A stretch of 64,000 nucleotides of DNA from Methanobacteriota archaeon (GTDB taxonomy: Archaea; Thermoplasmatota; Thermoplasmata; SG8-5; DAIRED01): NCBI GenBank assembly GCA_043799545.1, contig JAZDNO010000029.1, positions 1-64,000 on the forward strand, written 5' to 3'. Shown here one piece after another: positions 30,767-51,200 of the stretch. Position 1 is the stretch's first letter, and the number at the start of each line of letters is the position of its first letter. Made by a program: the position numbers and the translations under genes. The notes below the pieces were generated by a model, which was not told the DNA's origin, made no database searches, and saw only the letters and a program-made list of their open reading frames with translations.

Positions 30767-30894
30767 GCCGCTCTTTGGGCAGCGCCACAAATGAGTATAT
30801 ATTTGGAGCATCTAGCAATTAAAGTAGTTTTTTTCTCTTATTTTGCTGTGCAATACAATATGCGATATTGTAGTATAAAAGGTGCGGTCGGTGT

Positions 30895-31308
30895 TTATTC
30901 GACAAGTCTCTGAATGAAATCCTTCGGAGTAATTATCTCTATGCCTCTCACTCTTTTCAAGGTAAGCAGATGTTTATCGCCAGTCACTATGTAACCAGCC
31001 TTGCCCGCAATGGCCGCTTCTATGACCTTGTTGTCATCGGGATCGTCTTTGACCAAATTCACTTTGGATTTCGGGTGGACCACCTCTGAAATCTTGATAG
31101 TCATGGCTAGGATTTCTTTGATCTGCTCTTGTGAGTAAGGAAATTTTGGCCTAGACAGGACTTCCTCGAACTCGAACAATATTTCCGGGGAAATGACCAA
31201 CCTCACCTTTTCCCTGTAGACCGCCCGGAGGGCCATGTACGGAGGCCCCTGTCCGTTCAACGCCGAAACCAGAACGTTCGTGTCGTAGATTGCCCGTATA
31301 TCGGCCAT
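30895..31308 (-). CDS. vapC: PIN-domain toxin (VapC-like)
   Basis: YDTNVLVSA, DPDDNKVIEAA, IVTGDKHLL. Confidence 0.9.
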   Translation of the reverse strand: MADIRAIYDTNVLVSALNGQGPPYMALRAVYREKVRLVISPEILFEFEEVLSRPKFPYSQEQIKEILAMTIKISEVVHPKSKVNLVKDDPDDNKVIEAAIAGKAGYIVTGDKHLLTLKRVRGIEIITPKDFIQRLVE

Positions 31309-31309
31309 G

Positions 31310-31576
31310 TCACGCGGCCTGCCTCTTTTTCCGGTATTCCCGTATCTCCTCCATGACTACTTCCTCGGTTATTCCGGCCTCTTTCGCCAGCTTGGAAGTC
31401 GCCTTCACCAGCTTGTCGAATTCCTTTTCCACGGAAGGGAAATCCACTCTCTTGAAAATAACGTAGTCCTTCTCACCGTACGCGATGAACCTGTCCTCCG
31501 CATTCAGTCCCAGGAGCGCCCTCAGCTCCGCAGGAATCACAACCTGGCCTTTCTTGGACATCTTCACGAATTCCAT
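31310..31576 (-). CDS. AbrB/MazE/SpoVT-family antitoxin
   Basis: KMSKKGQVVIPAELR; immediately upstream of the PIN gene. Start at ATG 31576 or GTG 31585. Confidence 0.85.
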   Translation of the reverse strand: MEFVKMSKKGQVVIPAELRALLGLNAEDRFIAYGEKDYVIFKRVDFPSVEKEFDKLVKATSKLAKEAGITEEVVMEEIREYRKKRQAA

Positions 31577-31818
31577 CTGTATCACCGTTGAACAGTTATA
31601 CGGTTCAACACTTAAATAACTTCCCACTAACGCCCTTGGGACTTGCAAAACATCTTTACGACCATAGCCAGCACCCAGGAAAACCGCAAATGGCATCTTC
31701 GCTGCGATTCCCAACGCAAAGCTGCCTATTTGGGGTTTTCAGCCCTCGGGCCACCGCATCTATTTCACCCTTGCTCCCAACAAGCCCGCCACAGCTTCCA
31801 ACCGACCTCTAGGACTTC

Positions 31819-31855
31819 GCCATTTTCTCTCCGCATTAGCTGGTGAGAAAATGGC
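31819..31855. repeat. 11-bp perfect inverted repeat (gccattttctc / gagaaaatggc)
   Basis: Arms at 31819-31829 and 31845-31855, 15-nt loop; between the TA pair and the small ORF at 31868. Confidence 0.7.
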
Positions 31856-31867
31856 ATCGTCCACCTC

Positions 31868-32050
31868 ATGCAACTGCCAGAGGTTGCCAAGGAAATATCT
31901 GGAGAGTTCGAGCACCCCTTAGACCAAGTGCTTAGGAGCCTGTCTTTCGGTCTTTGCCCAATCACGGGGTTCGTAATCTGCCACTATCCAGACGATTGCC
32001 CGGGCTGCATAGATATCACAGACGAGATGCTGAGGAGCGTGCTGCAATGA
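31868..32050 (+). CDS. Small Cys-rich hypothetical protein
   Basis: CPITGFVICHYPDDCPGC; its stop overlaps the next ATG (ATGA at 32047). Confidence 0.45.
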   Translation: MQLPEVAKEISGEFEHPLDQVLRSLSFGLCPITGFVICHYPDDCPGCIDITDEMLRSVLQ

Positions 32051-32426
32051 GGAAAATCATAGACCACAGGGGATACAAAATGCGCGGAATCCTCTACCTC
32101 CCGCAAGACCTCAACCGCCTGAAATGCACAACACCGAAACGCTGGACCACTGGATTGCGAAAGCCCTAGTCTTTCGCATCCTACGGAGGCTGGGGCATGA
32201 CCTCGTAACAGAGTTCGAAATCACCGGCATGGGCATCGGGGACATATTCGATCTGACAAAATCGGTCCAGTACGAAATAGAAACCGTCAGTTACCTAAAA
32301 GCTGTCCAGCGAAGGGGCGAGCAATACGCCAGGATGGGCGTCGAGGTCATCGTGATACCGATGGGAAGGCTGCCGGAGGACATCGTGGAGCGGGAGAAGG
32401 CACTGAGGGAGTGGATGTGGGAGTAA
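32047..32426 (+). pseudogene. Frameshifted putative PD-(D/E)xK-like protein
   Basis: MRKIIDHRGYKMRGILYLPQDLNRLK continues in another frame as MHNTETLDHWIAK...GDIFDL...YEIET; restoring one A at 32122-32124 joins them. Confidence 0.55.
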
Positions 32427-32431
32427 TTGAA

Positions 32432-32514
32432 GGCATCCCCGACCACGGTTTGTCGGGAAGGCTCACGCTGCCAGCCAGGCTTTTTTGGCGTTTGCGGCGA
32501 CAGGTGTAAGGGTT
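32432..32514. repeat. ~83-bp direct repeat, copy A
   Basis: Core gaccacggtttgtcgggaaggctcacgctgcc matches copy B at 30 of 32 positions; ttttggcgttt and caggt are at identical offsets. Confidence 0.9.
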
Positions 32515-32522
32515 ACGGTTGG

Positions 32523-32960
32523 TCATTTTTCAGCATCTCCCAGATATTGTCCAGTGATGCCTCCCCAGTAGCCATCAAACTTTACTGCTAAATCCATTGG
32601 TTGATCCAGCTCATATCGATTGAAAGTCACTGAAAATTGGTCACCATTAGTAAAAGTACCTCCGCCATCAGTATCTATATAATCCCACACAAAGTCTGTA
32701 TTATTCAGATAAGTACCATTGCATTCAATAATCACATTGAAATTCACAGCGTTTAGATGAACCCTAGCTGGATTTAAATAAATGTATGTGACATTAAAAA
32801 TAATGGTCTTTGAAGTGTTATTTATGCTATATGGCGTCATCGTCCCAGAAATTTCTGGTTGGTCCTCAATGATCCCATCGTAGTAATTTACGGCGAAATA
32901 GACAACTAGAATTGTCACTATAGATACAATCGCCATAATTACACCTGTAATTTTTTTCAT
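32523..32960 (-). CDS. Small protein with N-terminal membrane anchor/signal, downstream partner of the orphan metallopeptidase cassette
   Basis: MKKITGVIMAIVSIVTILVVYFAV; YIDTDGGGTFTNGDQF motif; start overlaps the upstream TAA (TAATG). Confidence 0.7.
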   Translation of the reverse strand: MKKITGVIMAIVSIVTILVVYFAVNYYDGIIEDQPEISGTMTPYSINNTSKTIIFNVTYIYLNPARVHLNAVNFNVIIECNGTYLNNTDFVWDYIDTDGGGTFTNGDQFSVTFNRYELDQPMDLAVKFDGYWGGITGQYLGDAEK

Positions 32961-34486
32961 TATATCACATCCCAATGCATACTTAACGTCACATCCACCG
33001 TCGGAGGTTCAATATTATAAACCTGCGAGAATAGAGCATTGCTAGTAGTGAACCAATATATCCTGGTACTAAAATCGAAATTTACGTCATTGGCGTCTAA
33101 GTTTTCGTCAAGTAACGCTGCAAAGGGGATGTAATTTGGGGAATAGGCAAATTCATCAAACGTAATTATCCCCTTTCGGTCCCCCATTTGCTCAACAAAC
33201 CATTCCCAGCAAGATACCCCCCGTTCATCCCAGTGTGCAGGTTCTGGCCAATAATGATTGTCGAACCATTCATCGTACCACTGATGATAGCTCATATAAG
33301 ATATATCGCTTGTCATAAGCGTGTTCCAATCAACTGAGTAGCCGACATCATGGTAAGGTATCACATTTGGCCATCCTGTTGCATAATACCCATATTCATC
33401 TCCGAATCAGAAAACATAATGGCCTAACTCGTGAACAATTGTTGGTATCATATAACAACTATCAAATGAATATCCATTATACGTCCTAGGTAAACTTACT
33501 TCGCCATCTGGGAATCCCCAGTTAATGCCGTTCCAATATCCGTTTAAGTTTTTAACATGTGGCCAATAAGTGTCACTAGTTTCGTCCGCATCCTGGTCTC
33601 CAACCCTGATATTGACATTGTTCCAATTCTGCATATTATTATAGATTGTGACATCAGAGATATAAGCGTATCCATCTGTGCAGGTCATTAGATAAAGACT
33701 AGCGCCTTTGAACCCATCTTTTATTTGATTAATTTCTGCTATTGTTGCCTCCCAGCCGATGGAAACAGATAATTTAATTTTATAGACATTCGATGAATCC
33801 CGTGGGTTCTTCCAGCCAATTAAATATTCCCATTTGCTCAAGAGACCATCTCCATCATAATCATAATCCGCATCTGATGGGTCAAATATGTTTAGACCAT
33901 ATTTATATTCATACCAATTTTGTATTCCATCTCCATCAGTGTCTATGTGAGCATCATTATGAATCGGGCTCAAGCCATTTTGTATTTCATACGGGTATGG
34001 TATTCCGTCCCCGTCCCCATCGTTCTGCCAAACATCAAACCACACCTCGCAGTCGTCCTCGTCGTCATCTCCGCTCGTCCCCGTGCTCCCGTCCTCGTTC
34101 CCGCTGACGTGCCCGTAGCCGTCGCTGTCCCAGTCCGTCGGGCCGTTCGCCGTCCCGTCCCCGTCCGAATCCCCGGGGAGCATCCAGCCGCCGCCGATTC
34201 CGTCCTCCAGCTCGTCCCCGTCCATCAGGCCGTCGTTGTCCGTGTCCCCGTATCGCGGGTCGGTGCCGCTCTGCTTCTCCATATTGTCGTCCAGGAGGTC
34301 GCCGTCGGAGTTCACCTTCGTCGGGTCCGATGTGGCGGTGTAGGTCACGTCCGCAACGGGCGCGTTGTCTATCTCTACCTGCACCAGCCAGCCGGAGACT
34401 TCCTCGCCGTCGGAGAGGCCGTTGAACGGAGGATACACCAGGACTAATTCATCAACCAGGAGTGTCGGTTGTTCCACCGGTGGCAT
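32960..34486 (-). pseudogene. Orphan C-terminal cassette: TSP3-like homology region plus HExxH zinc metallopeptidase (CLCA_N-like), interrupted by an in-frame TGA
   Basis: ORFs 33407..34636 and 32960..33364 share a frame; the junction reads IVHELGHYVF*FGDEY. The 5' part is homologous to the giant gene; no signal peptide or evident RBS. Confidence 0.75.
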
Positions 34487-34564
34487 ACCAGACCAAGGTT
34501 TGCCGGGAAGGCTCACGCTGCCGCATAACGCCTTTTGGCGTTTTCTTCGGCAGGTTCGGGGGTT
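34482..34564. repeat. ~83-bp direct repeat, copy B
   Basis: 2050 bp from copy A. Contains a hairpin, minus strand CTGCCG..AACGCC-AAAA-GGCGTT..CGGCAG; begins right after the stop of the 34566 gene. Confidence 0.9.
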
Positions 34565-34565
34565 T

Positions 34566-35261
34566 CTAAACTGCATCCTTTTTCCTCCGCTTCCGCATGA
34601 AGTATATGGCAATTCCCGCGCCAGTAACAGTAACACTCACAGCGACGCCAATTATTACCAAGAGGGAATCGCCATTAAAGTCTGGTTTCGATGTTCTAAT
34701 TTCATTATTCGTTCTGCCCGGGGTCGGGTTTGCATCCGCATAAAAATCATCCGTCACGTTGTCCGTGTCGTATCCATATTCATATCTCGCCCATGAGTAA
34801 TTCATGGGGGGATAATCATCGCCGTCAAATACATCAATATGCCCTGTCCAATCAGTATTGTCAACAATAAACCGTCCTAGGTATCGAAGATCTAATTGAA
34901 ATATATTTACAGATTGTCCTATTACCCAATCATTCTTCATTACTTCAATATCGGAAGTAAAAATAACATATTTATCCGGCTTAATTATCGCACATGTCTC
35001 ATTTAATGGATATGGGCTAATTGAACCTATACCATCAAAGCTTATAGGATGAAAGTATAAATCCATTAAATTCACTGATTTCGCTGTAGGATTATATAAT
35101 TCCACAAATGAACATTTATCCTCCATACCAGTTATGGAGTAATATATTTCATTTATCACAATATGTTTCGCGGATTGTGGTACTTCTTCAGATAATACTA
35201 TCTGACTACATACATTTATGAGACACACACCCACACAGATTGCTATTATATTTTTTTTCAT
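34566..35261 (-). CDS. Lamin-tail-domain (LTD) protein with signal peptide and C-terminal TM anchor
   Basis: IVINEIYY...FVELYNPT, SWARY...DTDN...PTPG..N; C-terminal hydrophobic helix plus RKRRKK; AGGAGG RBS. Confidence 0.8.
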   Translation of the reverse strand: MKKNIIAICVGVCLINVCSQIVLSEEVPQSAKHIVINEIYYSITGMEDKCSFVELYNPTAKSVNLMDLYFHPISFDGIGSISPYPLNETCAIIKPDKYVIFTSDIEVMKNDWVIGQSVNIFQLDLRYLGRFIVDNTDWTGHIDVFDGDDYPPMNYSWARYEYGYDTDNVTDDFYADANPTPGRTNNEIRTSKPDFNGDSLLVIIGVAVSVTVTGAGIAIYFMRKRRKKDAV

Positions 35262-35272
35262 ATAATCTCCTC

Positions 35273-38200
35273 CTAAAGATATGTGAACATATCTATCGAC
35301 ACAGTATCGAATAAAGGAGAAGCCCGTTGAGGTGTTTGCCACGCAATAGCTGCCGATTCGCCACAAATATATGCCTCATATAGGCTGATAATACCATTAC
35401 CATTAATATCGACTGAAGGATTGCAGCTAATCGCCCCTGTCGTTATATCTCCAGATAATGGAACTAAAGCATTCCGGAAATTATAATTAAAAAACCATTT
35501 AGAATCTGCCACGGTATTTACACCATAAGCATCTTCATCTGAATCTGCTGATGTATACACAATTCTCTTCGGCGACGAGAGTTCATCGATAAAACGACCA
35601 CTTGAACATGTTTCCATCAAGATGACCATCCTTTCATAATTATTTAATTTTCCGACGTATGAACTTCCTGCGAATTCATCTTCATCAATGGTTTCTCCAC
35701 TATCACCACCCCATAATTTAATAACACAATTACCCCATTGATTATCACCTGAGTGCCCGATTACTATCGTAAAAAGAAAGTCATGTGGCCCCATTACGTT
35801 ACTTAACCGAATAAAAGCACCAGTTATAGCTGCACAACTAGAAGGTGCATCAACCATATGTTGATGCTCATTAACTAATATTGCTGCATCGGGTATACCG
35901 TCATTATTATTATCATCGTCTGCTGGCCATTGTGAATTATAGCAATTTGATGTACTAATGGCGCTCCCATCTGCATAAAATACCTCGATATCCCTTTTCT
36001 GATAACTGTAATCCTCAATTAATAGGTCATACCATCTGACAATGTCATTCCATATGTTCGCATAATTATATGCTGGTCCTGTGTTTGCCCCTATTATCAA
36101 TGCATATCTTCCATTATAAATTGCAGGATCCTGCCAGCCCAAGCCTCCGGCTATGGCATTCACTTCGTATAAATCAGACATTCTATCGCCATCGGAATCC
36201 GCGATGTCTGGCCTAGTGCCATAGATTCTTTCACTGTTTCCGTCTAATCCATCTCCATCAATGTCGATATTGGTAAATTCTATTGGATTAGTATTGTATG
36301 CTGGTTGACCTGGTTGTCGTTCTTTGACTTCCTCCCAATAAGTTAACCCATCATCATCGTTATCATTCTGTTTAATGTCAAACCATAAATCGCAATCATC
36401 CTCGTCATACGTTGTACCCCAACTCCCGTCTTCATCGCCGCTGACGTGCCCGTACCCGTTGGCGTCCCCGAGAGTATCATCTCCCGACCACTGACCGGTC
36501 TTCAAATCGTACCACATGCTCGCGTATGGCCACGCGCCCCCGACATCGCAAACGTCGTCGCCATCCGGCGGTGAGTGCCCCTGGTCGTCGTCGTAGAGAA
36601 CGATTATGACCTCAATTGGATTGTTCGTGACCCAGTCCGACAATCCGCTAGACGGGAACGTAAATCTGCTCCCTATCTCGTTCGGGGTCTTGTGTGCGTC
36701 GTCGTCCCAATTCGTCACACCGTCCGCGTTCTTCCAGTTCGCGCCATTCGGGTCCTTCGTGTTGTCCCGCCCGTCGTCTTTATTCTGCCCGTACATCATT
36801 TCATCGATGAACACTTTAAGATAGAAATCTCCAGCATACGAGCCGTCCGGGTCCACCTTGTCCAGCGCCAGTATCTCCGTTATCTTCACTGTTAACTCAA
36901 GGTCCGTGATCGGGTCTACGTCGTACCCGTCCGGCGCCCCGTCCAGGTCCATGTCATGGTTCAGCGGGTCGGTCTCGCCCTCCGCCAGGTCCACGACTAT
37001 GTCCCCATCCGGGTTCTCGCCCCTGTACGTCTCGGGACTGCAATGCTTCGCCACCTTCACGGAGCCGATATAGAATACCGTTCCCGTCGAGCTGTAAACA
37101 GGCACCGTCCTCACGACCTCCGGGAGCGTCACAGGACCGCCGTCCCAGAACCCGTCGCTGTCCGTGTCAGGGGTGAGCCATGACGTTCCCTGCACGCCGA
37201 CCAATCCAGGCCGGTAGTCGGTGGTCCATTCGTAGATGTTAGTCAGGCCGTCCCGGTCATAATCTTTGTCGTAATCTGCGGCGGGGAACGGCACGACCGC
37301 GTCTCCGTTCTCTCCCCTAATCACGAACCTCTCCTTGTCCGAAAGGCCGTCGCCGTAGCTGTCCCAGTCCGTCGGGCCGTTCTTCACGCCGTCCGCGTCG
37401 TTGTCGAGCCCCTTCACCATCCACCCGCCGCCGAACGCGTCTATCAGCTCGTCCCCGTCAGCCAGGCCGTCCCCGTCCGAGTCCGCGTTTCCAGGGTCCG
37501 TCTTGTATTGATACTCCCAGTAATCGTTTAAGGCGTCGGTATCAGTATTTTTCCTCAACGGGTCCGACCTGATATGGTATGTATTGTCGATTCCGAGTTT
37601 GTTGTTGAACTCGATTGAGACGTTCCAACCTTTGACTTCGAAGCCGTCCATCAGACCATCCCTGTCACTGTCCGCTATCAGGACACCGGTACCGTACCTC
37701 GCCTCGTCGCAGTCAAGTAGACCATCCCCGTCATCGTCGGCGTCGGCGTTGTTCCCGGTTCCGTCCCCGTCAGTGTCTAGCCATTCCGTCGAGTCGAGGG
37801 GGAATGCGTCCGAGGTATCGAAATGACCGTCGTTGTCGTCGTCGTGATCGGCAGTCAGAACGGTTCCCGAGAACCACGAGGGCTTGGAAAACGCAACGTC
37901 CGGCTTGTTATCGCCATCGGTATCGATGGCTCCGGTGGGGTTCAATCGCCATTCCAGTTTCTCCTGAATGTCAAGCACCCCGTCATTGTCGTCGTCCAAA
38001 TCTAAGACGAGCATTGGGGGTGAAGGCTTGTACCAATTAGAGAATGGCTCGACATAGACCTCGTCTGGTTGACCGTCCCCATCAGTGTCTGCCCATGCCC
38101 GGGGGTTGCGCGAAAATGCGTCCGCGTCATCCAAAACCCCATCATTATCGTCATCCTGGTCTTCATTATCTCCTAACGGAGTTATCCCGTCAGGCTTGAA

Positions 38201-41200
38201 ATCCCCATCAGTGTTACGAGATTCTAGGGGATTGCGCGAAAATTCCGGAGGATCTTCCTCGACATCGGGTACACCATCATTGTCGTCATCAGAATCTCCG
38301 TTGTTCCCGATACCATCTTTGTCTGTATCAAGCCACTCCGTCGCGAACAACGGTAACTCGTCGTATTCCACACCTGCATCATAAATGCCATTGTTATTGT
38401 TCTCAGCGTCTCGGATGAGCCCGACTATGTGGTCTGGCACCCCGTCATTGTCGTCGTCCAAATCCTCCAAGAGCGGCGTTTCGACGAACCACCATGGGAC
38501 TGATAAAAATACGTTCGGCATTCCGTCGCCATCGGTGTCCTCAGCTCCTGTTGGGTTCCAAGGAAAGGCGTCTTCAATGTCCAACACGCCATCGTTGTCA
38601 TCATCCGCATCGCTGTTGTTCCCGATGCCGTCGAAATCCGTGTCCACCCACTCGGTCGGGTCGACCGGGAAGGCATCCGCCAAGTCTCCACACGGGTCAC
38701 CGTCAGAGTTGTAGTTGACCGGGTTTGTGACATAGTTGTCCAGTCCCTTAACGGATTCCTCATAATCGCTCAGGCCATCTTCGTCCGAGTCGTCCTTGGT
38801 TGGATCCGAGCCTATTATCTTCTCTTCATCATCAAAAATACTATCCGAATCAGAGTCACTCATCCCAGGATTTGAAATGACCATGTATTCCAACGGCGAT
38901 TCGTATCCTTCGATGATGGCATCCGTAATCCACCCAGACAGCTCTTCGCCATCAGACAGTTTGTCACCATCACTGTACTCGGTCGTCGGATTCGTGATTA
39001 ATATATCCACTGTCACGGAAAAATCGATTATATTGATATGCCCATACGACATCGTTGTAAACTTTATCGGAATGAAAAGATTTTCATCTATGTTATCTCC
39101 TTGTGTGGCGATGTAGTGTTGTATGTCGTTCGTCATGTCGATGTTAAATAATGTAGATTCGTCTAAGTCGAAAACGAATGATCGGCTCTCGTCTGAACCT
39201 ATATCTACGCCAAGCGTCAAAGGATATTTAAATCGTTTATAGTGGATATTTATCGGATCAAATCCGCAACTGAAACACCATATTACAACCACTCTACCGT
39301 CGATGCATGTGTCGACGCTCATCATGCCCCCAATGGTTCCACTCTCAGAGCAAATGATTTCAGGCTCCGACCAAACATTGTCGCCATACATTTGATAATA
39401 GTAATTCCATTCTGTCCCCGTTCGCCCCATCCACACAAGATGAATTTTTCCATCCTTATCAATTGCAATCGATGGCATCCTGGATTCATCAAATTTACCG
39501 ACCGGATTTAAAGGACTCCATCCGATTCTGTTCCAGGTCCGCTCGATTATACCGAACTGGTAACCCGTTAGCGGGTTAATATAGATGCCTCCCCAAAATA
39601 GATGCACATTATTATCGGGAGTGATCGAAATCGTTGGGTTTCGGCAATGACCTTTAAACCCAATTTGATTATTTATCCACTCAGTATTGCTCCACATCGC
39701 CCCATCCAATCGTCGATAAAACAATTCATCACTTACTGACTGCAAAAACTCATTCCACGCGATATGCACAACATTCATCGAATCCACGGCAATCGATGGA
39801 TAACGCGAGATGGCGGAACCAGTACTAACGACCATCGTCGTCCCCCACGACAAACCGTTCCACTGTTTATAATATATATCGCAATCAGTGCCGCTGCCAG
39901 CATAGTTCGAGTTGTCGACCCATGCCACGTGGATGCCGTCGTTCTCATCAATCACCATCGCCACCATATTATCGGCCCAATATGAAGGAACCGAGTTCCC
40001 TTCGCTTTCCGTGCTTATTCGTTCGATTGGCAGCCAGACCATGCCATTCCAACATCTGTGGAATACGTCAATGTCGTTTCCCGAGTCCATGAAGTTGGAT
40101 GTGTCGGCCCATACCACATGAATATTGTCATGTGAATCGGTCGCAATGACGGGATATGTTGGGTTTGCATCCAGATCCCCACCGTCCAGTCTTTCGACAG
40201 CGCTCCAGGCATCTCCCGTCCCAGATTTATAATATATTGTATTGATATAATTTGGATATTCTCCCGTTCGATGTGCCCACACAATGTGGGATATCCCTTG
40301 CGAGTCTGTTGTGATGCCTTGCCTCAGACCGACTGAATCGTTGGGAGCGTTGTCAGTAATTCTCGTGGAATCTGGCACCCATTGAAATTCGAGCTTCGTT
40401 CCTGAGACATACTCCAACGAGTTATCCGCTTGAGGAATATTCAAAGTTGGCATAGCTAGATCATTCCCATGAAAACTTATGACCGGGGTGGGCGAGGGCA
40501 ATCCTTCGTATGTCAGCTCAGTTATTGTTTGTGTGGTCCGCCGGGCGACATTCAATTCTTCCCCGTCGCTCAAGCCGTCGCCATCGGTGTCACTTCTTAC
40601 TGGGTTGGTTGTCAGAATTTCTACCCTCATTGAGAAATCCGATAGTTCAATTATTCCAGAGCAAGTCGCCGTCAAGGTTAATGGTATCCATATCAACCCA
40701 TCTTCTCCACCCATATCGGCACCATCCTCACTTATTGTCAAAATATAATTTAATGCATTTGTAAGTCCTTCTTGGAAAACCCCATCATGATATTCCTCAA
40801 TCTCAAAGTCATTGAAACCATCATCGCCAATGTCCAAGTAGCTTACTCCTCCGGTCTTGTCAACAATATGAAGACAAGCCTCGCTGATATATTCCATGGC
40901 AACAATATTATCTGGAACTGTTACGAAGACGACCTTGCTCTCTCCACTGTAAAAAAATAGGGTCGCATCTTCCGTCTGTATTCCATCACTGATAAAACTA
41001 TCCGTAGTTTGCGGATGGACACAGTTGATATTGAACTCCACTCCGTCTGATATACCATCGAAATCTGTATCATCGGATACCGGGTTCGTGTCGAATGCAC
41101 CTAACAAGATGGACACGTATTCGATATCAATTGATCCCCGTCTTTCGGAGTGGAACACTAATGGGATTGAAATATTCCAATCCTCATCAACTACGAGGTC

Positions 41201-44200
41201 CGGGTGGGATAATAAATATTCATTCATTGGAACAACGAGGTTAGGCGTGGTCACGGAACCTTTCACAGGGAAAATCTCACAATCCGAGACACCGTCATCA
41301 CCGATGTCAATGGATATATCTGGATATCCAAGGGGGGCGTCGTAGCAGAATATCGAGCTTGCTTCGAGATTTGCAGCAACAAGTTCTGGATACCCATTAT
41401 TATCCACGTCGAGAGTTGCGACCGTCTTCGTTGTACCACCTTCTAATGCCGGGATACAGATGAGTTCTGGTTCGAAAAACCCCCTCCCGATATTTCTATA
41501 AATCGAAATTCGCCCGTCCAATCCAGTTTGACCAGATACAACGACATCCACATATCCATCGCAATCAATATCCGAACTGCATATGTCATAAGGCCAGCAC
41601 GATAAATAGTAATCAACTTTCGGGGCGAAGGCCCCATCACCATTGTTTGCGAAAAGGGAAATCGACTTGAAACCGTCTGTTGACAAGCGATCAACATTGC
41701 ATACCACAATGTCTTGGTCTCCATCTTTGTCGTAATCCACGTTAACACCCTTGAACGGGCTGGATCCGGACATATAATCTACAGGTGATGCAAACGTTCC
41801 ATCGCCTACATTTTCGTAGTATGATACTGCATCCACCATGTAATCATGAACCACGATATCTGAGTCGCCGTCACTGTTGAAATCGTTGGTTGAGGTCAGT
41901 ATTGGATACCAACCGGTCGTCTGCAATGCACAAACCATGCTAAATTGGCCCGCCCCATCATTCTCGAACAGTTCTAGCAATCCATGCCCATATTTTGAAC
42001 CCAACATAGAGCATATGATGTCAATATTTCCATCGTTGTTGAAATCGATAGTTCCAGCACTCAGGGAAGCTCCACCGCCTGGTTGCCCGAGCATTAGAAC
42101 GGAAAATACGCCGTCTCCGTTATTTTGTAACCAACCGAATTTTCCTTCATTAAGTGATGCCACAATATCATAATCACCATCTGTATCTATGTCTGCCAGA
42201 CAAATATTATTAATAATATTATCCAGTTGACAAGAAACCGGTTCGTTGAATACCCCATTTCCGGCATTAATATAGCAATCGATTCGTGTTTGGGAAACAG
42301 CAACAATATCGCTATCACCATCCCGATCAACATCAAACGTTTCAATATCCCCGCATGTTCCATCTCCTGGTGCCAGAAGTCTAGATCTTTCCACAAGATT
42401 CGTCCATCCCTGCGTTATTGCAGGAACCCCGGACAACTGTAATTTCGCATCTACCAGATAGTCCATAGATGCCATATAATCCGGAACGTCAATGAAAACT
42501 GTCTCCCCATTACCGCAATCATCAAAGGTTAATCGCTTTGTCGCTTGACCGTCTGAAAATGTATTTATTGCTGCATACGGGGCTTTATCAAGATTCATTT
42601 CCTCCGCATCGTTCAATCCATCGATGTCACAATCGTTGCGAGTTGCTTCCGCAATTGCGAAGATACTGAAATGATTGGTGCGCCCCCAAACGTACATGTT
42701 GTTTATGTCAATAGATGTTGCTTCCCCTGCAGATTTGTTGCCCAGTACATGCCATCCTGTTTCAGAATATGTGTAAAGACATAGGTATTTTTCGTAAACT
42801 CCGACCGGAAGCGAATTGGGATTGTATCTTATTTTTATCACTGCCTCGAATGAATCTACGCTCGTTGTAGATATATTGAAACAATGCCCGATACCACATT
42901 CAAGCCCTACCGGGATGTTATCAGCCAGACTCACCGTCGGTTGAGTCGTCGATTCAACAGTGTAATCGACAGCCAATGTCACGCCTAGCGTGTCATTTGT
43001 GATAACGACATCGGAACTGAAATCATTCCCAAAAGATATGTCGAAGGCTAAAATATTATCATCTATCGAATCCGGGATGAAGTCGCCATCCAAATCCGGC
43101 ATCAAGTTGATTGACTCCCCCTCTGACCATGTGATTGATATTTTTCCATTAAATACTACCATGTTCAAAGAGAGCGCGTTGACAGACGAATCGGGGATAG
43201 CGCCACCGATTCGTGGGGTCGCCCAAGAACCGTTACCTCCGGAGTACCATAATTCATCAATACCATTCACTTCATCTTGTATCCATGTGACATACATGAT
43301 GCCCGTCGCGACATCCATCGATATTTGTGGTTGGCATACGTCCACCGATGCATGACTCAAAAGGACGCCCTCTGAGTTTATTTTCAATGTGACGACAGCG
43401 CCGACCCCACCCTCGTCAGTGTATGAAATTGCATAAACGTCACGCCCAATCGCAATTATATCGGGGCTCCTGCATTCCTCTGTGCTGAACGTGAGTAGTT
43501 CTCCTTCAGGACTGGAAATCGTACCGTCGGAGAGTACCTGGACAGTTTTCAGATATCCATCGCCATCAATCCCAGAATACGAAATCGCAAAGATGTCACC
43601 AGAAACCCTAATCATCTCCGGGAAACGCCCCCTCTCCGTGTCGAACACGTAAGAATCGATAACAGTATCAGAAATGCAACCATCGGCAGATATCCGTATT
43701 GTTTTTAAACACCCATCATTGCCTGGGCCAGTGTATGCTATCGCATAAACACCATCAAATACATAGCTTACGTCGGGAGTTAAACCAGTCAAACAATCAA
43801 ACTCTAGTATATCTATCGCAGAATTCGATATATTGCCCTCTTCGCTGATTGTGTATGTCTGGATATATCCTTTAGAATTAAAATCAGAAAATGCGATCGC
43901 AAATGTGCTCCTGCCTATTGGTATGATATCTGGCGTATTGTAATTCTTCGTGTAATACACCATTGTATCTATACCCGTAGTGGCTATCGTGCCGTTGCTG
44001 GCAATCCCTATGGTCTTCACGTAGCCGTCGTTGTTCGCGCCCTCGTAGGCTATTGCGAATACCTCGTCCGCCGTGGGTATTATCTCCGGGTTGTTGCAGA
44101 TGCCGTGGTCGAAGACATAGGAATCCACCAGAGGCCCCGCTATGCTGCCGTTGTCCGCTATTCCCAGCGTGACCAGCTTGCCGTCGTTGCATATCGTGCT

Positions 44201-44671
44201 GTAGGCTATCGCGTAGACGCCGTCGCCCGCGCGGACGATGTCCGGCACCTTGCATATGCCAGTCTCGAACTTGAACCAATCTATCATCGCGGCAGATATA
44301 TCCCCGCCCGGGCTTATGCCCACGGTCTTGATTATCCCGTCGTTGGAGGCGCTCCTGTAGACGACTGCGTAAACGTCACCGCTTATCGGGATTATCTCTG
44401 ATTCCACTCCCCTATTGGTGTCGATTTCCAGCCTGTCCAGGACACTGTTGTTCGAGATGTCGGTGTAGTTGTCGTGGAGATTGTCGTCGTAGAACACCTG
44501 ATAAACGCCGTTCACCTTCTCTCTCCAGACCTTGCGCTCGTACCCGTTCTGATCGATGAAAACGTCCACCTGCTTCTCATAGTCGTCCTCGTAAGCAAAG
44601 ACGTTCTGGAATGCGGTCACGCACATCACGCTCACGCACAACAGCGCCAGCCATTTTGTTAAAACGCTCAT
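35273..44671 (-). CDS. Giant secreted multidomain protein (3132 aa): 7-repeat propeller-like region, FG-GAP/VCBS repeats, BNR-like repeats, TSP3-type Ca-binding repeats, C-terminal clan CD (C13/caspase-like) peptidase
   Basis: Signal peptide; ~52-aa repeats P(D/E)II..GDVYAIAY; DxDxDGDxDIV repeats; many DxDxDG..D..DAFP repeats; terminal RYALIIG...GHSG...ETCSSG His-Cys dyad. Confidence 0.85.
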   Translation of the reverse strand: MSVLTKWLALLCVSVMCVTAFQNVFAYEDDYEKQVDVFIDQNGYERKVWREKVNGVYQVFYDDNLHDNYTDISNNSVLDRLEIDTNRGVESEIIPISGDVYAVVYRSASNDGIIKTVGISPGGDISAAMIDWFKFETGICKVPDIVRAGDGVYAIAYSTICNDGKLVTLGIADNGSIAGPLVDSYVFDHGICNNPEIIPTADEVFAIAYEGANNDGYVKTIGIASNGTIATTGIDTMVYYTKNYNTPDIIPIGRSTFAIAFSDFNSKGYIQTYTISEEGNISNSAIDILEFDCLTGLTPDVSYVFDGVYAIAYTGPGNDGCLKTIRISADGCISDTVIDSYVFDTERGRFPEMIRVSGDIFAISYSGIDGDGYLKTVQVLSDGTISSPEGELLTFSTEECRSPDIIAIGRDVYAISYTDEGGVGAVVTLKINSEGVLLSHASVDVCQPQISMDVATGIMYVTWIQDEVNGIDELWYSGGNGSWATPRIGGAIPDSSVNALSLNMVVFNGKISITWSEGESINLMPDLDGDFIPDSIDDNILAFDISFGNDFSSDVVITNDTLGVTLAVDYTVESTTQPTVSLADNIPVGLECGIGHCFNISTTSVDSFEAVIKIRYNPNSLPVGVYEKYLCLYTYSETGWHVLGNKSAGEATSIDINNMYVWGRTNHFSIFAIAEATRNDCDIDGLNDAEEMNLDKAPYAAINTFSDGQATKRLTFDDCGNGETVFIDVPDYMASMDYLVDAKLQLSGVPAITQGWTNLVERSRLLAPGDGTCGDIETFDVDRDGDSDIVAVSQTRIDCYINAGNGVFNEPVSCQLDNIINNICLADIDTDGDYDIVASLNEGKFGWLQNNGDGVFSVLMLGQPGGGASLSAGTIDFNNDGNIDIICSMLGSKYGHGLLELFENDGAGQFSMVCALQTTGWYPILTSTNDFNSDGDSDIVVHDYMVDAVSYYENVGDGTFASPVDYMSGSSPFKGVNVDYDKDGDQDIVVCNVDRLSTDGFKSISLFANNGDGAFAPKVDYYLSCWPYDICSSDIDCDGYVDVVVSGQTGLDGRISIYRNIGRGFFEPELICIPALEGGTTKTVATLDVDNNGYPELVAANLEASSIFCYDAPLGYPDISIDIGDDGVSDCEIFPVKGSVTTPNLVVPMNEYLLSHPDLVVDEDWNISIPLVFHSERRGSIDIEYVSILLGAFDTNPVSDDTDFDGISDGVEFNINCVHPQTTDSFISDGIQTEDATLFFYSGESKVVFVTVPDNIVAMEYISEACLHIVDKTGGVSYLDIGDDGFNDFEIEEYHDGVFQEGLTNALNYILTISEDGADMGGEDGLIWIPLTLTATCSGIIELSDFSMRVEILTTNPVRSDTDGDGLSDGEELNVARRTTQTITELTYEGLPSPTPVISFHGNDLAMPTLNIPQADNSLEYVSGTKLEFQWVPDSTRITDNAPNDSVGLRQGITTDSQGISHIVWAHRTGEYPNYINTIYYKSGTGDAWSAVERLDGGDLDANPTYPVIATDSHDNIHVVWADTSNFMDSGNDIDVFHRCWNGMVWLPIERISTESEGNSVPSYWADNMVAMVIDENDGIHVAWVDNSNYAGSGTDCDIYYKQWNGLSWGTTMVVSTGSAISRYPSIAVDSMNVVHIAWNEFLQSVSDELFYRRLDGAMWSNTEWINNQIGFKGHCRNPTISITPDNNVHLFWGGIYINPLTGYQFGIIERTWNRIGWSPLNPVGKFDESRMPSIAIDKDGKIHLVWMGRTGTEWNYYYQMYGDNVWSEPEIICSESGTIGGMMSVDTCIDGRVVVIWCFSCGFDPINIHYKRFKYPLTLGVDIGSDESRSFVFDLDESTLFNIDMTNDIQHYIATQGDNIDENLFIPIKFTTMSYGHINIIDFSVTVDILITNPTTEYSDGDKLSDGEELSGWITDAIIEGYESPLEYMVISNPGMSDSDSDSIFDDEEKIIGSDPTKDDSDEDGLSDYEESVKGLDNYVTNPVNYNSDGDPCGDLADAFPVDPTEWVDTDFDGIGNNSDADDDNDGVLDIEDAFPWNPTGAEDTDGDGMPNVFLSVPWWFVETPLLEDLDDDNDGVPDHIVGLIRDAENNNNGIYDAGVEYDELPLFATEWLDTDKDGIGNNGDSDDDNDGVPDVEEDPPEFSRNPLESRNTDGDFKPDGITPLGDNEDQDDDNDGVLDDADAFSRNPRAWADTDGDGQPDEVYVEPFSNWYKPSPPMLVLDLDDDNDGVLDIQEKLEWRLNPTGAIDTDGDNKPDVAFSKPSWFSGTVLTADHDDDNDGHFDTSDAFPLDSTEWLDTDGDGTGNNADADDDGDGLLDCDEARYGTGVLIADSDRDGLMDGFEVKGWNVSIEFNNKLGIDNTYHIRSDPLRKNTDTDALNDYWEYQYKTDPGNADSDGDGLADGDELIDAFGGGWMVKGLDNDADGVKNGPTDWDSYGDGLSDKERFVIRGENGDAVVPFPAADYDKDYDRDGLTNIYEWTTDYRPGLVGVQGTSWLTPDTDSDGFWDGGPVTLPEVVRTVPVYSSTGTVFYIGSVKVAKHCSPETYRGENPDGDIVVDLAEGETDPLNHDMDLDGAPDGYDVDPITDLELTVKITEILALDKVDPDGSYAGDFYLKVFIDEMMYGQNKDDGRDNTKDPNGANWKNADGVTNWDDDAHKTPNEIGSRFTFPSSGLSDWVTNNPIEVIIVLYDDDQGHSPPDGDDVCDVGGAWPYASMWYDLKTGQWSGDDTLGDANGYGHVSGDEDGSWGTTYDEDDCDLWFDIKQNDNDDDGLTYWEEVKERQPGQPAYNTNPIEFTNIDIDGDGLDGNSERIYGTRPDIADSDGDRMSDLYEVNAIAGGLGWQDPAIYNGRYALIIGANTGPAYNYANIWNDIVRWYDLLIEDYSYQKRDIEVFYADGSAISTSNCYNSQWPADDDNNNDGIPDAAILVNEHQHMVDAPSSCAAITGAFIRLSNVMGPHDFLFTIVIGHSGDNQWGNCVIKLWGGDSGETIDEDEFAGSSYVGKLNNYERMVILMETCSSGRFIDELSSPKRIVYTSADSDEDAYGVNTVADSKWFFNYNFRNALVPLSGDITTGAISCNPSVDINGNGIISLYEAYICGESAAIAWQTPQRASPLFDTVSIDMFTYL

Positions 44672-44960
44672 CTCAGGTCAACCCCTCTACCACTCTCAGA
44701 ACGACAATGCAATATTTAATAATAAAGATAATGAGATTGTGTATATACTTCTTTATTCAAATAATATTCTTCGATTAGATATATACATGCGCATTGTAAA
44801 TGCGCCTACATAACTATTGGAATATACCGAATGCAAAAATACCTAGTTTATGGATTTGAGCCAGACCGTAAAAGTTCAGATTTCTGATATAAATATAAAA
44901 GAATGCGCTCAATATATACTTAAATTAGTTATTAGCCAGATAGAAAAATGATCGACTTAG

Positions 44961-45160
44961 CGGTATTATCCGAAGGCACTAGGTTTGATGAGATACATTG
45001 ATCCAGACGATGCGCCGTTCATCGCTCTCGCATTATCTTTTGACAACGATGGCATATGGACTAACGATTCCCATTTTAACAACAGAACCAGTTGAGAATC
45101 TGGAATACGAAAGACTTGATCGAAGAATTGCGCGGGATGGAAGAAGAATCGCATTTGTGA
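44961..45160 (+). pseudogene. C-terminal fragment of a PIN-domain (VapC-like) gene
   Basis: YPKALGLMRYIDPDDAPFIALALSFDNDGIWTNDSHF, then frameshift near 45078 to QQNQLRIWNTKDLIEE; N-terminus missing. Confidence 0.65.
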
Positions 45161-45246
45161 GTCAAAAGAAATGAAGGGACTTGCACAGAGCGCTCGTCAC
45201 GTTAATCTACTCATTGGGCATTTAGGGGACGATGAAAGTCGTGGAA

Positions 45247-48245: not shown

Positions 48246-51200
48246 ATGTGCGGGTTGCTCTGTCGCCTTTCTGCAGGGATATTGGCCATCGTCATGATAT
48301 CCGGCGCCATATTTCCATTGGCGAACGAATCGGCTGGCTCGGCGGTTCCGCGCGACGGAGGCGAGGCGTTCGGCCGCCGGATGGGGCTGCTGAGGGAGGA
48401 CCCCAGGAACTCGCCGATGCTGACGGAGGTATCCGCTGAACGAATCTGCGCGGCGTTCCCGGGTGCATTGCCGGCCTCGGTCGATAACTCCGCGGGCCTG
48501 CCCCCCATAGGCGACCAGGGCCACCAGGGTTCCTGCGTGGCATTTTCAGTCGGTTACTATCACACCACTTACATCGAAAACAAGGAGAACCCAATAAACA
48601 TGAAGAATCCGGCCAACCAGGTCAGTCCCGCGTTCGTGTACAACCATATAAATGGAGGCGAGGATGGCGGAGCGTACTTCGGCGATGCCGCGAACTTCAT
48701 AATGAGCCATGGAGCCTGCAGCATGGCAGAGATGCCCTACAACGACCATGAATGCACATCGTGGCCGTCGGACGACTGGAAGTACGTAAACGCACTCAAG
48801 AGGAGGGCAGCGGGGGCGTACTGGATAAACGTCGGTTGGAGCCCGGGGATTGAAGCTCTCAAGGCTCACCTAGCCAGCGGCAACACTGCTGTCTTGGGCA
48901 TAGAGTGCTGGGACACCTTCTTCGATATTGAATTCTACAACAACACCTACAGTTCGGCAGATCTCATCGGCAGCGATTGGGGCGGGCATGGCGTGTGCGT
49001 CGTGGGCTACGATGACTCCATGGAGACGCCGGACGGATACGGAGCTTTCCGGATAGCCAATTCATGGGGCACATACTGGGGGGATGACGGCTACTTCTGG
49101 ATGACTTACGAGGCCGTGATGGACCCCAGGATTTCCCAGCTATCGGTGATTTACCTCGAGAGCTTGGTGGATTACGAGCCTTTGATGGTGGCGAAGGCAA
49201 CATTCGACCATTCGCGCCGCGGCGACGTGACCAAATCTGACGGGCTCTGGATGGCCCTCTCAGTCGACGGAGAAGAGGCGTGGTCAAAACCGTTTTTCAA
49301 CGCTTCCGAGATGGAGGAATGGATGGAATATATTGGAGAGGACTACCAGGCAATTCCATTCCCTGACGGCCCCGTAGTTCTTGACCTCACAGAGGCGTAC
49401 TCCGAGCTGGGTCCTCCCGGTGCGGAAAACATTTTTTACCTGGTTGCAATGGATTCTGGGGCAACGGGCGGAGCCATCACCTCGCTCCAAATAATCGACG
49501 TTCCCGACTGGTCTGGAAACTGCACCCCCTGGGGCTCAAAGGAAATTCCTCCCGGAGGTTTCGCGGAGGTAGAGTTGTCGCTGGATAGAACAACATTCAA
49601 GCATCTGCCAATAAAAATCGAGGAATACCAGACGATGAAGATGAAAGCCATATCGGAGTTCTGGCAAGGCGCCGGGACTGTAGATGACCCGTACGTATTG
49701 TCCAGCTACGATATAGATGGTTCGGGATGGGGATTCTGCCTGGACGTGGCTTCTAAAAAAGATTGGGTTGTCGTGGAGAATTGCTCATTTTACGGCGCGA
49801 GCGGAACCGGATACGACCCAGTCGACACGGGGGTCCTCTTGCGCAACGTTTCCAGATGGTCGCTGTCTGGAAGCGATGTCTCCGGATGCGACTGCGGTGT
49901 CCTGATAATCGAAGGATGCGACGACAATTATGTTATAAACAATAACGTGCACGACAATATCCAATACGGGATATTCCTTGATATTACATCGGGGAACGCT
50001 GTTTACAACAACAACATCATTAACAACAGAATGCAAGCCGAGGACTACAGCGGTTTGAACCGTTGGGACGACCAGTATCCTGGGACTTACGCCGTGCCCT
50101 CCGAGGAAGCCGACCCGATAACAACCAGAACCGAGGAGACGCAATGGCTGGTCCCGGTCCACCAAGACTCGATATGGGCCCAGAACAATACAGAGGACTT
50201 CGTCAGGATGCTCGCGGGTGCAAATTATTCGCTCGCGATAAATTCCACGAACCTCCAGGCATTCGACGTATGGGTGAATGGGTACACGGACGCGAACGAC
50301 CTGGACATCGCAGTCTTCCTCGACGGCAACAACGGCCAGCCACTCGATGGAGCGGTACAGTGGCAGGAAGTACTTTCCGATTCCTCATTCGAATTCGATA
50401 TTTTCAACTCGTCAATCCCACTGGGCCATTATAGCTATTGCGCCGATGCCGACGCGAACGAGGGGATTCGCGTGCTGCATCCTGTGGACGGCACGTACTT
50501 CGTCAAGGTTCTGGGGTTCGACGTTCAAACCCCGCCAGGCGGTCATTTCGACATCCGGGTCGGGACTGAAACGGTCGAGGGCGCAATCCTGGCGAACCGT
50601 AACGTCATCACGGGAAGCGTGAACGTCACAAAAAACGAGATTTGTCGTTGGAAGGCATACCGCGAGGATGCCATTGACAACAATGCGGTGTATGACATGG
50701 ATGGAACCGAGGTCGTTACGTGGTACTTCGAACTTCCATGCATCCCCATGGCCGGAACGGTCGACCTCAGCTACTATTCCGATTCTGGAACGCCCGGAGA
50801 CGCGTCGGACGATTTCTGGGAATCGTTCGAAAGCATAGGCTTCGTCGAAGGTCTTGACTATTCAATCTACCCCGACGGGACGGTGGCAATATTCGCTTTT
50901 GACGGGACGGCAGGCGAGTCCTTGTATGCGAACTTTTCATACCTTTCTAGCATAGCAGTCCCGCCGTCTGGGTATACTGTGTTCGAAGAAGCCGGCGCAT
51001 TAATTTTCGATGAACCGCTCAGCTCGCATTTGTGCAATATCACTGTGATGTATTCGTATGTGAGTGTGGGTGGGGGGAATTACTGGTCGGATTACGCGGG
51101 CGAGGACGAACTCTCCGGGCCAGCCCAGGACCAGCCAGGATGCGATGGCTTCGGAGATTGGCCGTATATTGATATTCTCGGAGGCTATGGAGTCTGGGAC

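Follow-up and report, generated by a model that had tools for sequence, protein, structure and literature searches.

Giant secreted scaffolds with varied enzymatic ends: a probable family of polymorphic surface-effector cassettes in Thermoplasmata

Weapons that depend on contact or proximity and have exchangeable ends play a central part in the social life of bacteria; from archaea, such systems are known almost solely as predictions.

Zhang et al. 2012 defined the polymorphic toxin systems of bacteria, among which Rhs-CT/RhsI, CdiA-CT/CdiI and MafB/MafI have orphan cassettes and whose toxin classes include caspase-like and HExxH peptidase ends (PMC3482391). In the VARTIG modules of Thermococcales, the C-terminal region of a large secreted protein is hypervariable via recombination with shorter downstream homologues, a layout that Makarova et al. 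2021 likened to polymorphic toxin systems (PMC8416519). In them, however, it is not an enzyme that varies but an Ig domain with its sorting signal, the lineage is another one, and neither a C2-like junction nor a TSP3 stalk is described for them (PMC8416519). The gingipain C25 and PPAD of Porphyromonas gingivalis belong to enzyme families met again below (Peptidase_C25, PAD_porph) and act on extracellular proteins, but they are T9SS cargo of fixed architecture and not cassette-exchanged ends on a giant scaffold.

The window, a 64,000-nucleotide stretch of archaeal DNA, contains a locus that we interpret, with a probability of roughly 0.65, as an array belonging to a family of polymorphic surface-effector cassettes that spans the Thermoplasmata. 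Its features are as follows.

30770..45220, no strand: low-GC island of 14.5 kb with the whole array, a PIN/AbrB pair and PIN fragments
35273..44671, minus: giant scaffold gene, 3132 aa (from the ORF, Pfam and sequence reading)
36272..36919, minus: predicted C2-like beta-sandwich junction domain, aa 2585-2800 (from profile, AlphaFold and Foldseek)
35276..36106, minus: putative legumain-like Peptidase_C13 end, clan CD (PF01650)
34566..35261, minus: partner gene 1, with signal peptide, LTD-like domain (sub-threshold), C-terminal TM and basic tail
34476..34590, minus: R copy 1, GGAGG..ATG (ATG at 34576) and a conserved basic leader in frame with the cassette
32960..34576, minus: spare cassette (module 2), 538 codons, broken by the TGA at 33407-33409
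32523..32960, minus: partner gene 2, 145 aa, with an N-terminal membrane anchor
32425..32540, minus: R copy 2 (terminal), ATG at 32526, 59-codon ORF

On the minus strand, the order is giant, small gene, repeat element R, headless paralogue, second small gene and R. All parts of the two like-built tandem modules proposed in an earlier sequence-only reading are found in place, including the tail of module 2 (its small gene followed by the same repeat). The GC content of the island is 0.43-0.55 vs ~0.59 in its flanks. Its neighbours, an XPD helicase and a pseudouridine synthase, lie 127 bp apart in the sister MAG (G001:C18), and the orthologous sites of array islands are empty in the sister species, in both directions. 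The arrays are island-borne and insertion of the island is demonstrated. A tRNA scan found none near the island, hence no tRNA-type att.

The giant begins with a signal peptide and a family-specific N-terminal domain, continues through propeller and FG-GAP/BNR-like regions into a predicted Ca-binding TSP3 stalk, and closes with the C2-like junction domain and the C13 end. A Sec-type N-terminus, read from the sequence, and central repeats give it the secreted, multidomain build of polymorphic toxins. In Pfam, FG-GAP_3 and Peptidase_C13 exceed their gathering scores, and BNR_4 and TSP3_bac fall below. The N-terminus and residues 435-754 are common to the giants of relatives and to giant2, a second paralogue on contig C12 of the same genome (G000), where it is accompanied by a small gene and a third R copy. 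Rhs toxins have YD repeats and an Rhs core ending in PxxxxDPxGL; neither giant has an RHS or YD family among its Pfam or NCBIfam matches.

The PF01650 match covers giant residues 2856-3052 (E 3.4e-7, 30.5 bits vs a cut-off of 22.8). A candidate catalytic His lies in VIGHSG (35747-35764) and a candidate Cys in METCSSG (35597-35617), both motifs read off the sequence. Profile and His-Cys dyad together assign the end to Peptidase C13 (legumain, clan CD), as a putative peptidase. The description of the main gene as a 3132-aa secreted repeat protein ending in a clan CD His-Cys peptidase is thereby confirmed, and so is the domain call for which an HMM search had been suggested.

Upstream of this end lies the conserved motif GYGHVSG..DEDDC.LWFDI.QND..DG.TYWEE (36326-36457), which according to the model forms the last strands of a C2-like beta-sandwich. 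The AlphaFold model of the junction domain is of moderate confidence (pLDDT 68.9, pTM 0.73). Foldseek places C2 domains at the top, from cPLA2, perforin, synaptotagmin-like proteins and dysferlin (E ~1e-4, prob 1.0; when normalised to the target, TM is mostly 0.45-0.70 against isolated C2 domains). The model resembles the eight-stranded, Ca-dependent membrane-docking sandwiches of perforin, cPLA2, synaptotagmins and ferlins, and the domain carries acidic loops (DDD, DEDD). It differs in being extracellular and archaeal, and Pfam gives it no sequence-level C2 match.

Of 401 genomes sampled from the class, 15 contain a match to the junction profile. At E<=1e-5 the profile retrieves no fewer than 210 proteins, almost all of them unnamed and from Thermoplasmata MAGs. 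Profile searches took the place of a pattern-based scan of 185,579 species genomes, whose patterns were too narrow and which found the sister MAG alone. Judged by these matches, the family appears to be widespread and undescribed, with hundreds of unnamed members, and is set apart from named systems by its parts.

Its scaffold is conserved up to the junction. The giants of a 180-kb JGI contig and of G044 share 49% and 43% identity with giant2 over ~1000 residues of the N-terminal part. The match to giant2 resumes further on as far as the junction (giant2 residue ~3335), and past this point no similarity is left. There, giant2 has a C14 end, the JGI giant an unassigned His/Cys domain and the G044 giant a Zn-peptidase. 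Five modules of G000 and G001 carry five unrelated ends. Post-junction ends exceed the Pfam thresholds for C13, C14, C25, Metallophos, PAD_porph and Transglut_core; precomputed database annotations add C11, M20/M28 and beta-helix ends, and M54/Reprolysin-like Zn-peptidase matches stay below threshold. A swappable protease tip had been predicted: the ends do vary across the scaffold family, but next to putative legumain-, gingipain- and clostripain-like peptidases and Zn-peptidases, the repertoire includes arginine deiminase, transglutaminase and phosphoesterase.

Homologues, all from MAGs or metagenome contigs, were compared by end and next gene. Unrelated ends follow one conserved junction, which supports the sequence-only reading, and in three end classes the next gene co-varies with the end. 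That reading was to fall if every homologue ended in C13 and no other locus had headless cassettes; instead, the ends differ, and headless cassettes clearly recur in G002, G044, the sister MAG and the JGI contig. The latter two repeat the order main gene, small gene, R, orphan, small gene, R, the sister MAG having the layout of the window with other ends. In G002:C11 and G044:C65, tandem headless cassettes stand behind the main genes and start at profile positions 130-171 of 204. G044 cassettes with unrelated ends are 92-99% identical to each other in the junction DNA, over 122-161 nt; in the best-documented pair (L074 cassette a vs L077), 91.8% identity over 73 nt precedes a Metallophos and a C25-like end, respectively. 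Short stand-alone forms of 438-455 aa, composed of signal peptide, C2-like domain and Zn-peptidase, are common and fit ordinary secreted enzymes equally. The architecture, the junction, the diversity of ends, the co-variation of partners and the recurrence of spare cassettes are features that we demonstrate for this family.

Module 2 opens with a leader and a TSP3 segment that is 55% identical (aa) to giant residues 2338-2442. Of the junction domain it keeps just the final strands, after which come a linker and, as its Zn-peptidase end, an unrelated HELGH domain; before that domain, identity to giant residues 2703-2865 is 36%. GYGHVSG lies at 34100-34120 and HELGH at 33419-33433. It was rightly taken for a copy of the pre-terminal region with a different, HExxH end, but it is not start-less, since R supplies an in-frame ATG at 34576, and its frame is interrupted. 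A single in-frame TGA (33407-33409) comes right after HELGHYVF; among 173 homologues of the end, the best full-length one has Gly at this position. The spare cassette of the window is inactivated by one nonsense codon at a conserved Gly. Having only the last C2-like strands, it cannot fold on its own. Junction DNA of main gene and cassette is 72-75% identical over 113-155 nt, so no recent exchange is visible here.

The model of the cassette end reaches a pLDDT of 79.8, and its fold matches are all metzincin-type, each weak alone (E 0.01-0.1). HELGH..GDEY is present, the frame being broken by the TGA. Pfam and NCBIfam assign no family to module 2; the proposed CLCA_N identity finds no Pfam match in the window copy, while homologues of the end give CLCA and M64 matches below threshold. 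The CLCA-like type of end seen in this cassette also tips full-length scaffolds of 1800-1838 aa in G060, and G002, like G060, has an intact CLCA-like end.

In nearly all cases, the gene that follows an end gene, within -49 to +20 nt, encodes an N-terminal membrane anchor. In the window, the last codons of partner gene 1 overlap R, and the ATG of partner gene 2 overlaps the TAA stop of the cassette by one base. Partner 1 had been called a small exported LTD protein: the signal and the C-terminal TM are there, but LTD (PF00932) scores 28.4 bits against a Pfam cut-off of 34.3, so the name is tentative. No Pfam or NCBIfam family exceeds threshold in any small partner, and a search of partner 2 against 5.8 billion proteins returned only itself.

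Homology between partners is seen only where the ends are homologous, and partner co-varies with end in three classes. C25-like ends are 56% identical and their partners 40% (E 5e-43), Metallophos ends 41% and their partners 31% (E 9e-24), and the PAD end class has a beta-helix partner at 38% (E 6e-20). In the unassigned His/Cys class, the partners differ. The two partners of the window are without detectable relatives, so co-variation is demonstrable only for other loci. The partners, which include LTD-like, NosD-like beta-helix and multi-TM proteins, are diverse and large, whereas immunity proteins are typically small. A complex prediction for the C13 end and the extracellular part of partner 1, run without controls, scored 0.00.

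Like bacterial polymorphic toxin loci, the arrays lie on islands and comprise a secreted giant scaffold, unrelated C-terminal domains behind a conserved junction, an adjacent gene that co-varies, and headless cassettes downstream. Four of these traits, the secreted multidomain scaffold, the unrelated ends, the co-varying next gene and the junction-sharing orphan cassettes, are among those by which Zhang et al. 2012 defined such systems. The parts are nonetheless different. YD/Rhs, haemagglutinin and DUF1020 parts are absent, in place of PxxxxDPxGL or VENN the junction is formed by the last part of a C2-like sandwich, and the ends appear to be extracellular protein-modifying enzymes, with no nuclease among those named. 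The host is archaeal, the partners are large and membrane-anchored, and an R/leader element lies between cassettes. The same genetic logic as that of bacterial swappable pairs would then be built on a TSP3 stalk, a C2-like junction and anchored partners.

In the mechanism we propose, the giant would be exported by Sec and present, behind its family-specific N-terminal domain and propellers, a Ca-binding TSP3 stalk, the C2-like sandwich, a short TSP3 linker and the enzymatic end. The next gene would encode a membrane-anchored, outward-facing partner that travels with this end. Downstream, a stored cassette would offer a different end (a CLCA/metzincin-like Zn-peptidase) with its own partner gene, and end-plus-partner units would swap by homologous recombination in conserved junction/TSP3 DNA. 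In the lineage of the window, where each cassette is also followed by R, the latter is probably a second homology arm or a site-specific recombination site. In a toxin/immunity role, the ends may act on surface proteins of neighbouring cells, docked by the C2-like domain, and the partners may protect the producer. The family supplies end/partner pairs that can be tested and a defined junction at which recombination-driven diversification in archaea can be studied.

That module 2 is a one-off decayed tandem paralogue or an assembly artefact is very improbable. Its in-frame TGA, the missing giant residues 2443-2702 and the MAG origin of the genome would fit, but an independent MAG and an independent JGI contig show the same order of parts, hundreds of proteins have homologous ends and junctions, and the truncation point (giant residue 2338) is common to an intact 759-aa cassette of the sister MAG. 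A broader alternative concerns function: the ends could be nutrient-acquiring or surface-remodelling exoenzymes whose catalytic modules are shuffled for substrate range, which we consider somewhat unlikely, and the downstream anchored proteins could be docking, maturation or anchoring factors rather than protectors, a role that seems to us similarly doubtful. C13, C25, C11, PAD, M20/M28 and phosphoesterase ends are classical extracellular protein-modifying enzymes, short secreted forms exist (signal peptide, C2-like domain and end), and the partners are large and domain-rich; moreover, the giants have no obvious C-terminal anchor, so that a membrane partner could tether them. Yet silent cassettes have no obvious nutritional use when they begin within a structural domain and carry no signal peptide, and strict co-transfer of end and partner with homogenised junction DNA is a hallmark of polymorphic conflict systems (PMC3482391), in favour of surface-effector cassettes.

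The other alternative turns on R: spare cassettes might be by-products of a mobile element whose attachment site is R, with no dedicated swapping of ends, an unlikely reading; no more likely is its corollary that recombination at R creates headless genes by linking the leader to the sequence that happens to follow. Copies of R stand behind unrelated acylphosphatase/coiled-coil paralogues too, and in G073 R heads a 5'-truncated Phage_integrase ORF. At 0.9 kb and ~6 kb past terminal R copies there are integrase genes, the terminal copies diverge at a single point beside an imperfect palindrome, and the islands face empty sites in the sister species. Tyrosine recombinases are encoded nearby at G000:C12:73575-74495 and L093 20606-21631. 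Against it, R DNA has no match at the G044 loci, so other families use no R, and the R-less families (G002, G044, G013) have the same spare-cassette arrays. A genome BLAST finds no R copy at the other end of the island. Finally, in four or more lineages the leader is joined to TSP3 in frame, with ~30 further codons conserved among these fusions, which random joins would not be expected to produce.

R itself had been described as an 83-bp repeat; it is present after both modules, but its true span is ~110 nt, with an RBS and ATG (GGAG..AAAAATG) and 31-33 conserved codons of a basic leader (~33 codons). Positions 32432-32515 and 34482-34565 are ~80% identical, and BLAST within the 2.06-Mb genome retrieves the second copy at E 1e-10 and the third, after giant2 and its small gene on C12, at E 1.3e-15: the repetition is not due to chance. 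Rfam returned nothing relevant for the three loci. Coding on the reverse strand was rejected: one reverse frame stays open in all but one of seven copies, yet it has neither a start nor a conserved continuation, whereas the forward frame shows conserved RBS and ATG with codon-like conservation. An SSV-type split integrase was rejected as well, as the far island ends lack R and the G073 ORF misses the first 27 positions of the catalytic profile.

R may be a recombination site. As with integron attC and att sites, it is a direct repeat after each cassette, found with unrelated cargo and near tyrosine recombinase genes, one of them fused to the leader. It differs from attC in its codon-like conservation with RBS and ATG of its own, in having no long imperfect hairpin, and in that no IntI-type integrase was identified. 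A dual purpose, as a site at which a tyrosine recombinase excises and captures cassettes from several gene families and as a translated basic leader heading every stored cassette, is a decidedly unlikely reading of this boundary element, puzzling for its predicted translation; if true, R and the C2-like junction would together make an integron-like platform by which a giant surface scaffold is fitted with alternative enzyme ends. In the window, the ATG of R copy 2 overlaps the TGA of partner gene 2, and this copy carries a perfect CCCGAC-N8-GTCGGG palindrome where the copies start to diverge.

The whole array occupies a 14.5-kb low-GC island (30770-45220), inserted between an XPD helicase gene on one side and a pseudouridine synthase gene on the other; the sister MAG lacks the island and has only 127 bp between the two genes. 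It contains the following features.

35273-44671, minus strand: giant ORF, 3132 aa
34566-35261, minus strand: small ORF, partner gene 1
Between partner gene 1 and module 2, minus strand: repeat R, copy 1
32960-34576, minus strand: module 2, the spare cassette, a 538-codon frame with one internal stop
32523-32960, minus strand: small ORF, partner gene 2
After partner gene 2, minus strand: repeat R, copy 2
32124-32426: 100-aa ORF
30895-31714: PIN/AbrB pair
Near 44990-45170: PIN-like fragments

Just beyond the island, a secreted 1173-aa protein (48246-51767, plus strand) combines, as judged by eye, a papain-like (C1) region with beta-helix-like repeats.

The giant protein has a Sec-type N-terminus. 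Pfam recognizes FG-GAP_3 and a C-terminal Peptidase_C13 above curated cut-off (the latter at residues 2856-3052, 30.5 bits against 22.8), with BNR_4 and TSP3_bac sub-threshold. Together with a candidate His/Cys dyad read from the sequence (VIGHSG, METCSSG), this bears out the clan CD His-Cys peptidase that the sequence-only reading had placed here. Partner 1, described there as a small exported LTD protein, has a signal peptide and a C-terminal TM segment, but its LTD-like match stays below threshold. Partner 2 (145 aa) carries an N-terminal membrane anchor and has no relatives anywhere in a protein database search.

Module 2 had been taken for a headless copy of the giant's pre-terminal region with an unrelated HExxH end, and so it is: it matches residues 2338-2442 at 55% identity and residues 2703-2865 at 36%, lacks the 260 residues between them, and then runs on into an unrelated HELGH-bearing domain, for which an exhaustive HMMER search turned up 173 relatives. 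A TGA at 33407-33409 breaks the frame immediately 3' of HELGHYVF; since the best full-length relative (48% identity) reads HELGHYVFGFYDEY at this site, the stop replaces a conserved Gly codon as a nonsense mutation, which leaves the window's copy dead. CLCA and M64 Pfam matches occur among the relatives, sub-threshold only. For a structure model (12 sequences, pLDDT 79.8) all matches are metzincin-type peptidases (ADAM, ADAMTS, MMP, karilysin), none of them strong (E 0.01-0.1), and the end is thus predicted to be a Zn-peptidase of an undescribed family. Full-length 1800-aa scaffolds in a relative's genome, G060, carry the same CLCA-like end type.

A profile of the pre-terminal region matched 15 of 401 genomes of the class, in several families, and a second one, confined to the final 90 residues, picked up at least 210 proteins at E<=1e-5, nearly all of them unnamed proteins from Thermoplasmata MAGs. 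They share the junction motif GYGH.SG.EDG..DEDDC.(I/L)WFDI.QND.D.DG..YWEE, beyond which the sequences are unrelated. The ends comprise Peptidase_C13, C14, C25, Metallophos, PAD_porph and Transglut_core by Pfam; C11, M20/M28 and beta-helix families by the database's precomputed annotations; and, besides these, two or more kinds of Zn-peptidase along with domains that have no assignment. Scaffolds that match giant2, a paralog of the giant, at 43-49% identity across some 1000 N-terminal residues, and match it once more as far as the junction, carry three unrelated end domains. Headless cassettes are lined up in tandem behind main genes at G002:C11 (two of them) and at G044:C65, starting at profile positions 130-171 of 204. 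Such tandems and the many end classes contradict a one-off module 2 in a family of uniform C13 termini. Four junction-family members (P0187, P0202, P0247, P0263; 60-73% identity) bear the NCBI label 'Candidatus Peribacteraceae bacterium', a sign of either mis-binned archaeal contigs or transfer between domains.

Behind almost all end genes, at a distance of -49 to +20 nt, lies a gene whose product is anchored in the membrane at its N-terminus. When C-terminal domain and next gene were tabulated across relatives, as the sequence-only reading had proposed, the two co-varied in three end classes: in all-against-all comparisons, partner homology is confined to pairs with homologous ends. C25-like ends (56% identity) have partners 40% identical (E 5e-43); Metallophos ends (41%), across families, partners 31% identical (E 9e-24); PAD ends, NosD-like beta-helix partners (38%, E 6e-20). 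In an unassigned His/Cys end class the partners differ. As the window's own two partners are without relatives, co-variation is claimed here for the family rather than for these two genes.

Modelled from 14 sequences (pLDDT 68.9, pTM 0.73), the pre-terminal domain comes out as an all-beta sandwich whose top structural matches are C2 domains, namely those of cPLA2, perforin, extended synaptotagmins, Munc13 and dysferlin, with E about 1e-4, prob 1.0 and, for isolated C2 domains, a target-normalised TM mostly of 0.45-0.70. The junction would thus consist of the final strands of a C2-like domain. With nothing more of the domain than these strands, a spare cassette could probably not fold by itself, which speaks for stored parts rather than genes in their own right. 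Junction DNA in G044 is 92-99% identical over stretches of 122-161 nt that precede unrelated ends, a likely signature of recombination at this site; in the best-documented pair (L074 cassette a and L077), 91.8% identity over 73 nt connects a Metallophos with a C25-like end. Between giant and module 2 the figure is lower (72-75% over 113-155 nt), and the window thus shows no sign of recent exchange.

At every point that can be judged from sequence, the architecture appears to be that of polymorphic toxin systems as defined by Zhang et al. 2012 (PMC3482391), as proposed earlier, although its building blocks differ; it also resembles archaeal VARTIG modules (PMC8416519). We infer that the ends attack or modify surface proteins of neighbours, that the C2-like domain would dock them and that the partners may protect the producer. 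Alternatively, the ends may be diversifying exoenzymes, consistent with the common short secreted forms (signal peptide, C2-like domain, end). Thermoplasmata MAGs often encode compact proteins of 438-455 aa (P0166, P0168, P0175, P0178) that consist of a signal peptide, complete C2-like domain, linker and Zn-peptidase end, which suggests that C2-like domain and end form the functional unit and the giant scaffold is optional.

The giant-protein family and the R element appear undescribed. R does occur twice in the window, but at about 110 nt rather than the 83 bp first reported. Every copy reads GGAG..AAAAATG followed by 31-33 conserved codons, encoding the basic leader M-T-F-R-N-P-R-T-C-R-R-K-R-Q-K-A-L-C-G-S-V-S-L-P-x-K-P-W-S-G-M, which is not signal-peptide-like. 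Differences among copies fall mostly at third codon positions (136 vs 59 and 48), so R probably is or was translated; copy 1 gives the spare cassette its ATG, in frame. A third copy closes a second full array (L008, G000:C12:61076-74495), after giant2 (3591 aa; beta-propeller, PKD, TSP3, Peptidase_C14 end) and its anchored 245-aa partner; this terminal R, with a 93-codon ORF, precedes a wHTH gene and a 306-aa Phage_integrase gene. Leader-headed cassettes, with about 30 more conserved codons in common beyond the leader, occur in the sister MAG (759 aa, intact, unassigned His/Cys end), on an ENA contig (993 aa) and on a 180-kb JGI contig (851 aa, PAD_porph end), the last behind a 2410-aa giant and a small gene and before a partner gene and terminal R. 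The sister MAG array adjoins eIF6, and the orthologous site in the window's genome (C15) is empty; with sites empty in both directions, the arrays belong to the flexible genome.

Terminal copies diverge straight after PWSGM, beside an imperfect CCCGAC-N8-GTCGGG palindrome, with integrase genes 0.9 kb (G000:C12) and about 6 kb (JGI contig) further on. Rfam has no family for R, a tRNA scan found none near R or the island, and a leader match in the unpublished genome G211, on which no conclusion here draws, is weak, at chance level. In G073, of a sister family, the leader follows unrelated acylphosphatase/coiled-coil paralogs in tandem (L036, C112; L040, C119) and heads a 5'-truncated Phage_integrase (tyrosine-recombinase) ORF; R thus also occurs outside giant-protein cassettes. 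In another family, the spare cassettes (L078, G044:C6; L089, G105:C27) start with another basic leader that they share, MFDxxLRRxTEQRRK.., fused to the junction. Other G044 cassettes have ..FLTWESWTIPIA.. in common as a 5' segment, as well as repeats of 220-500 nt beyond their partner genes.
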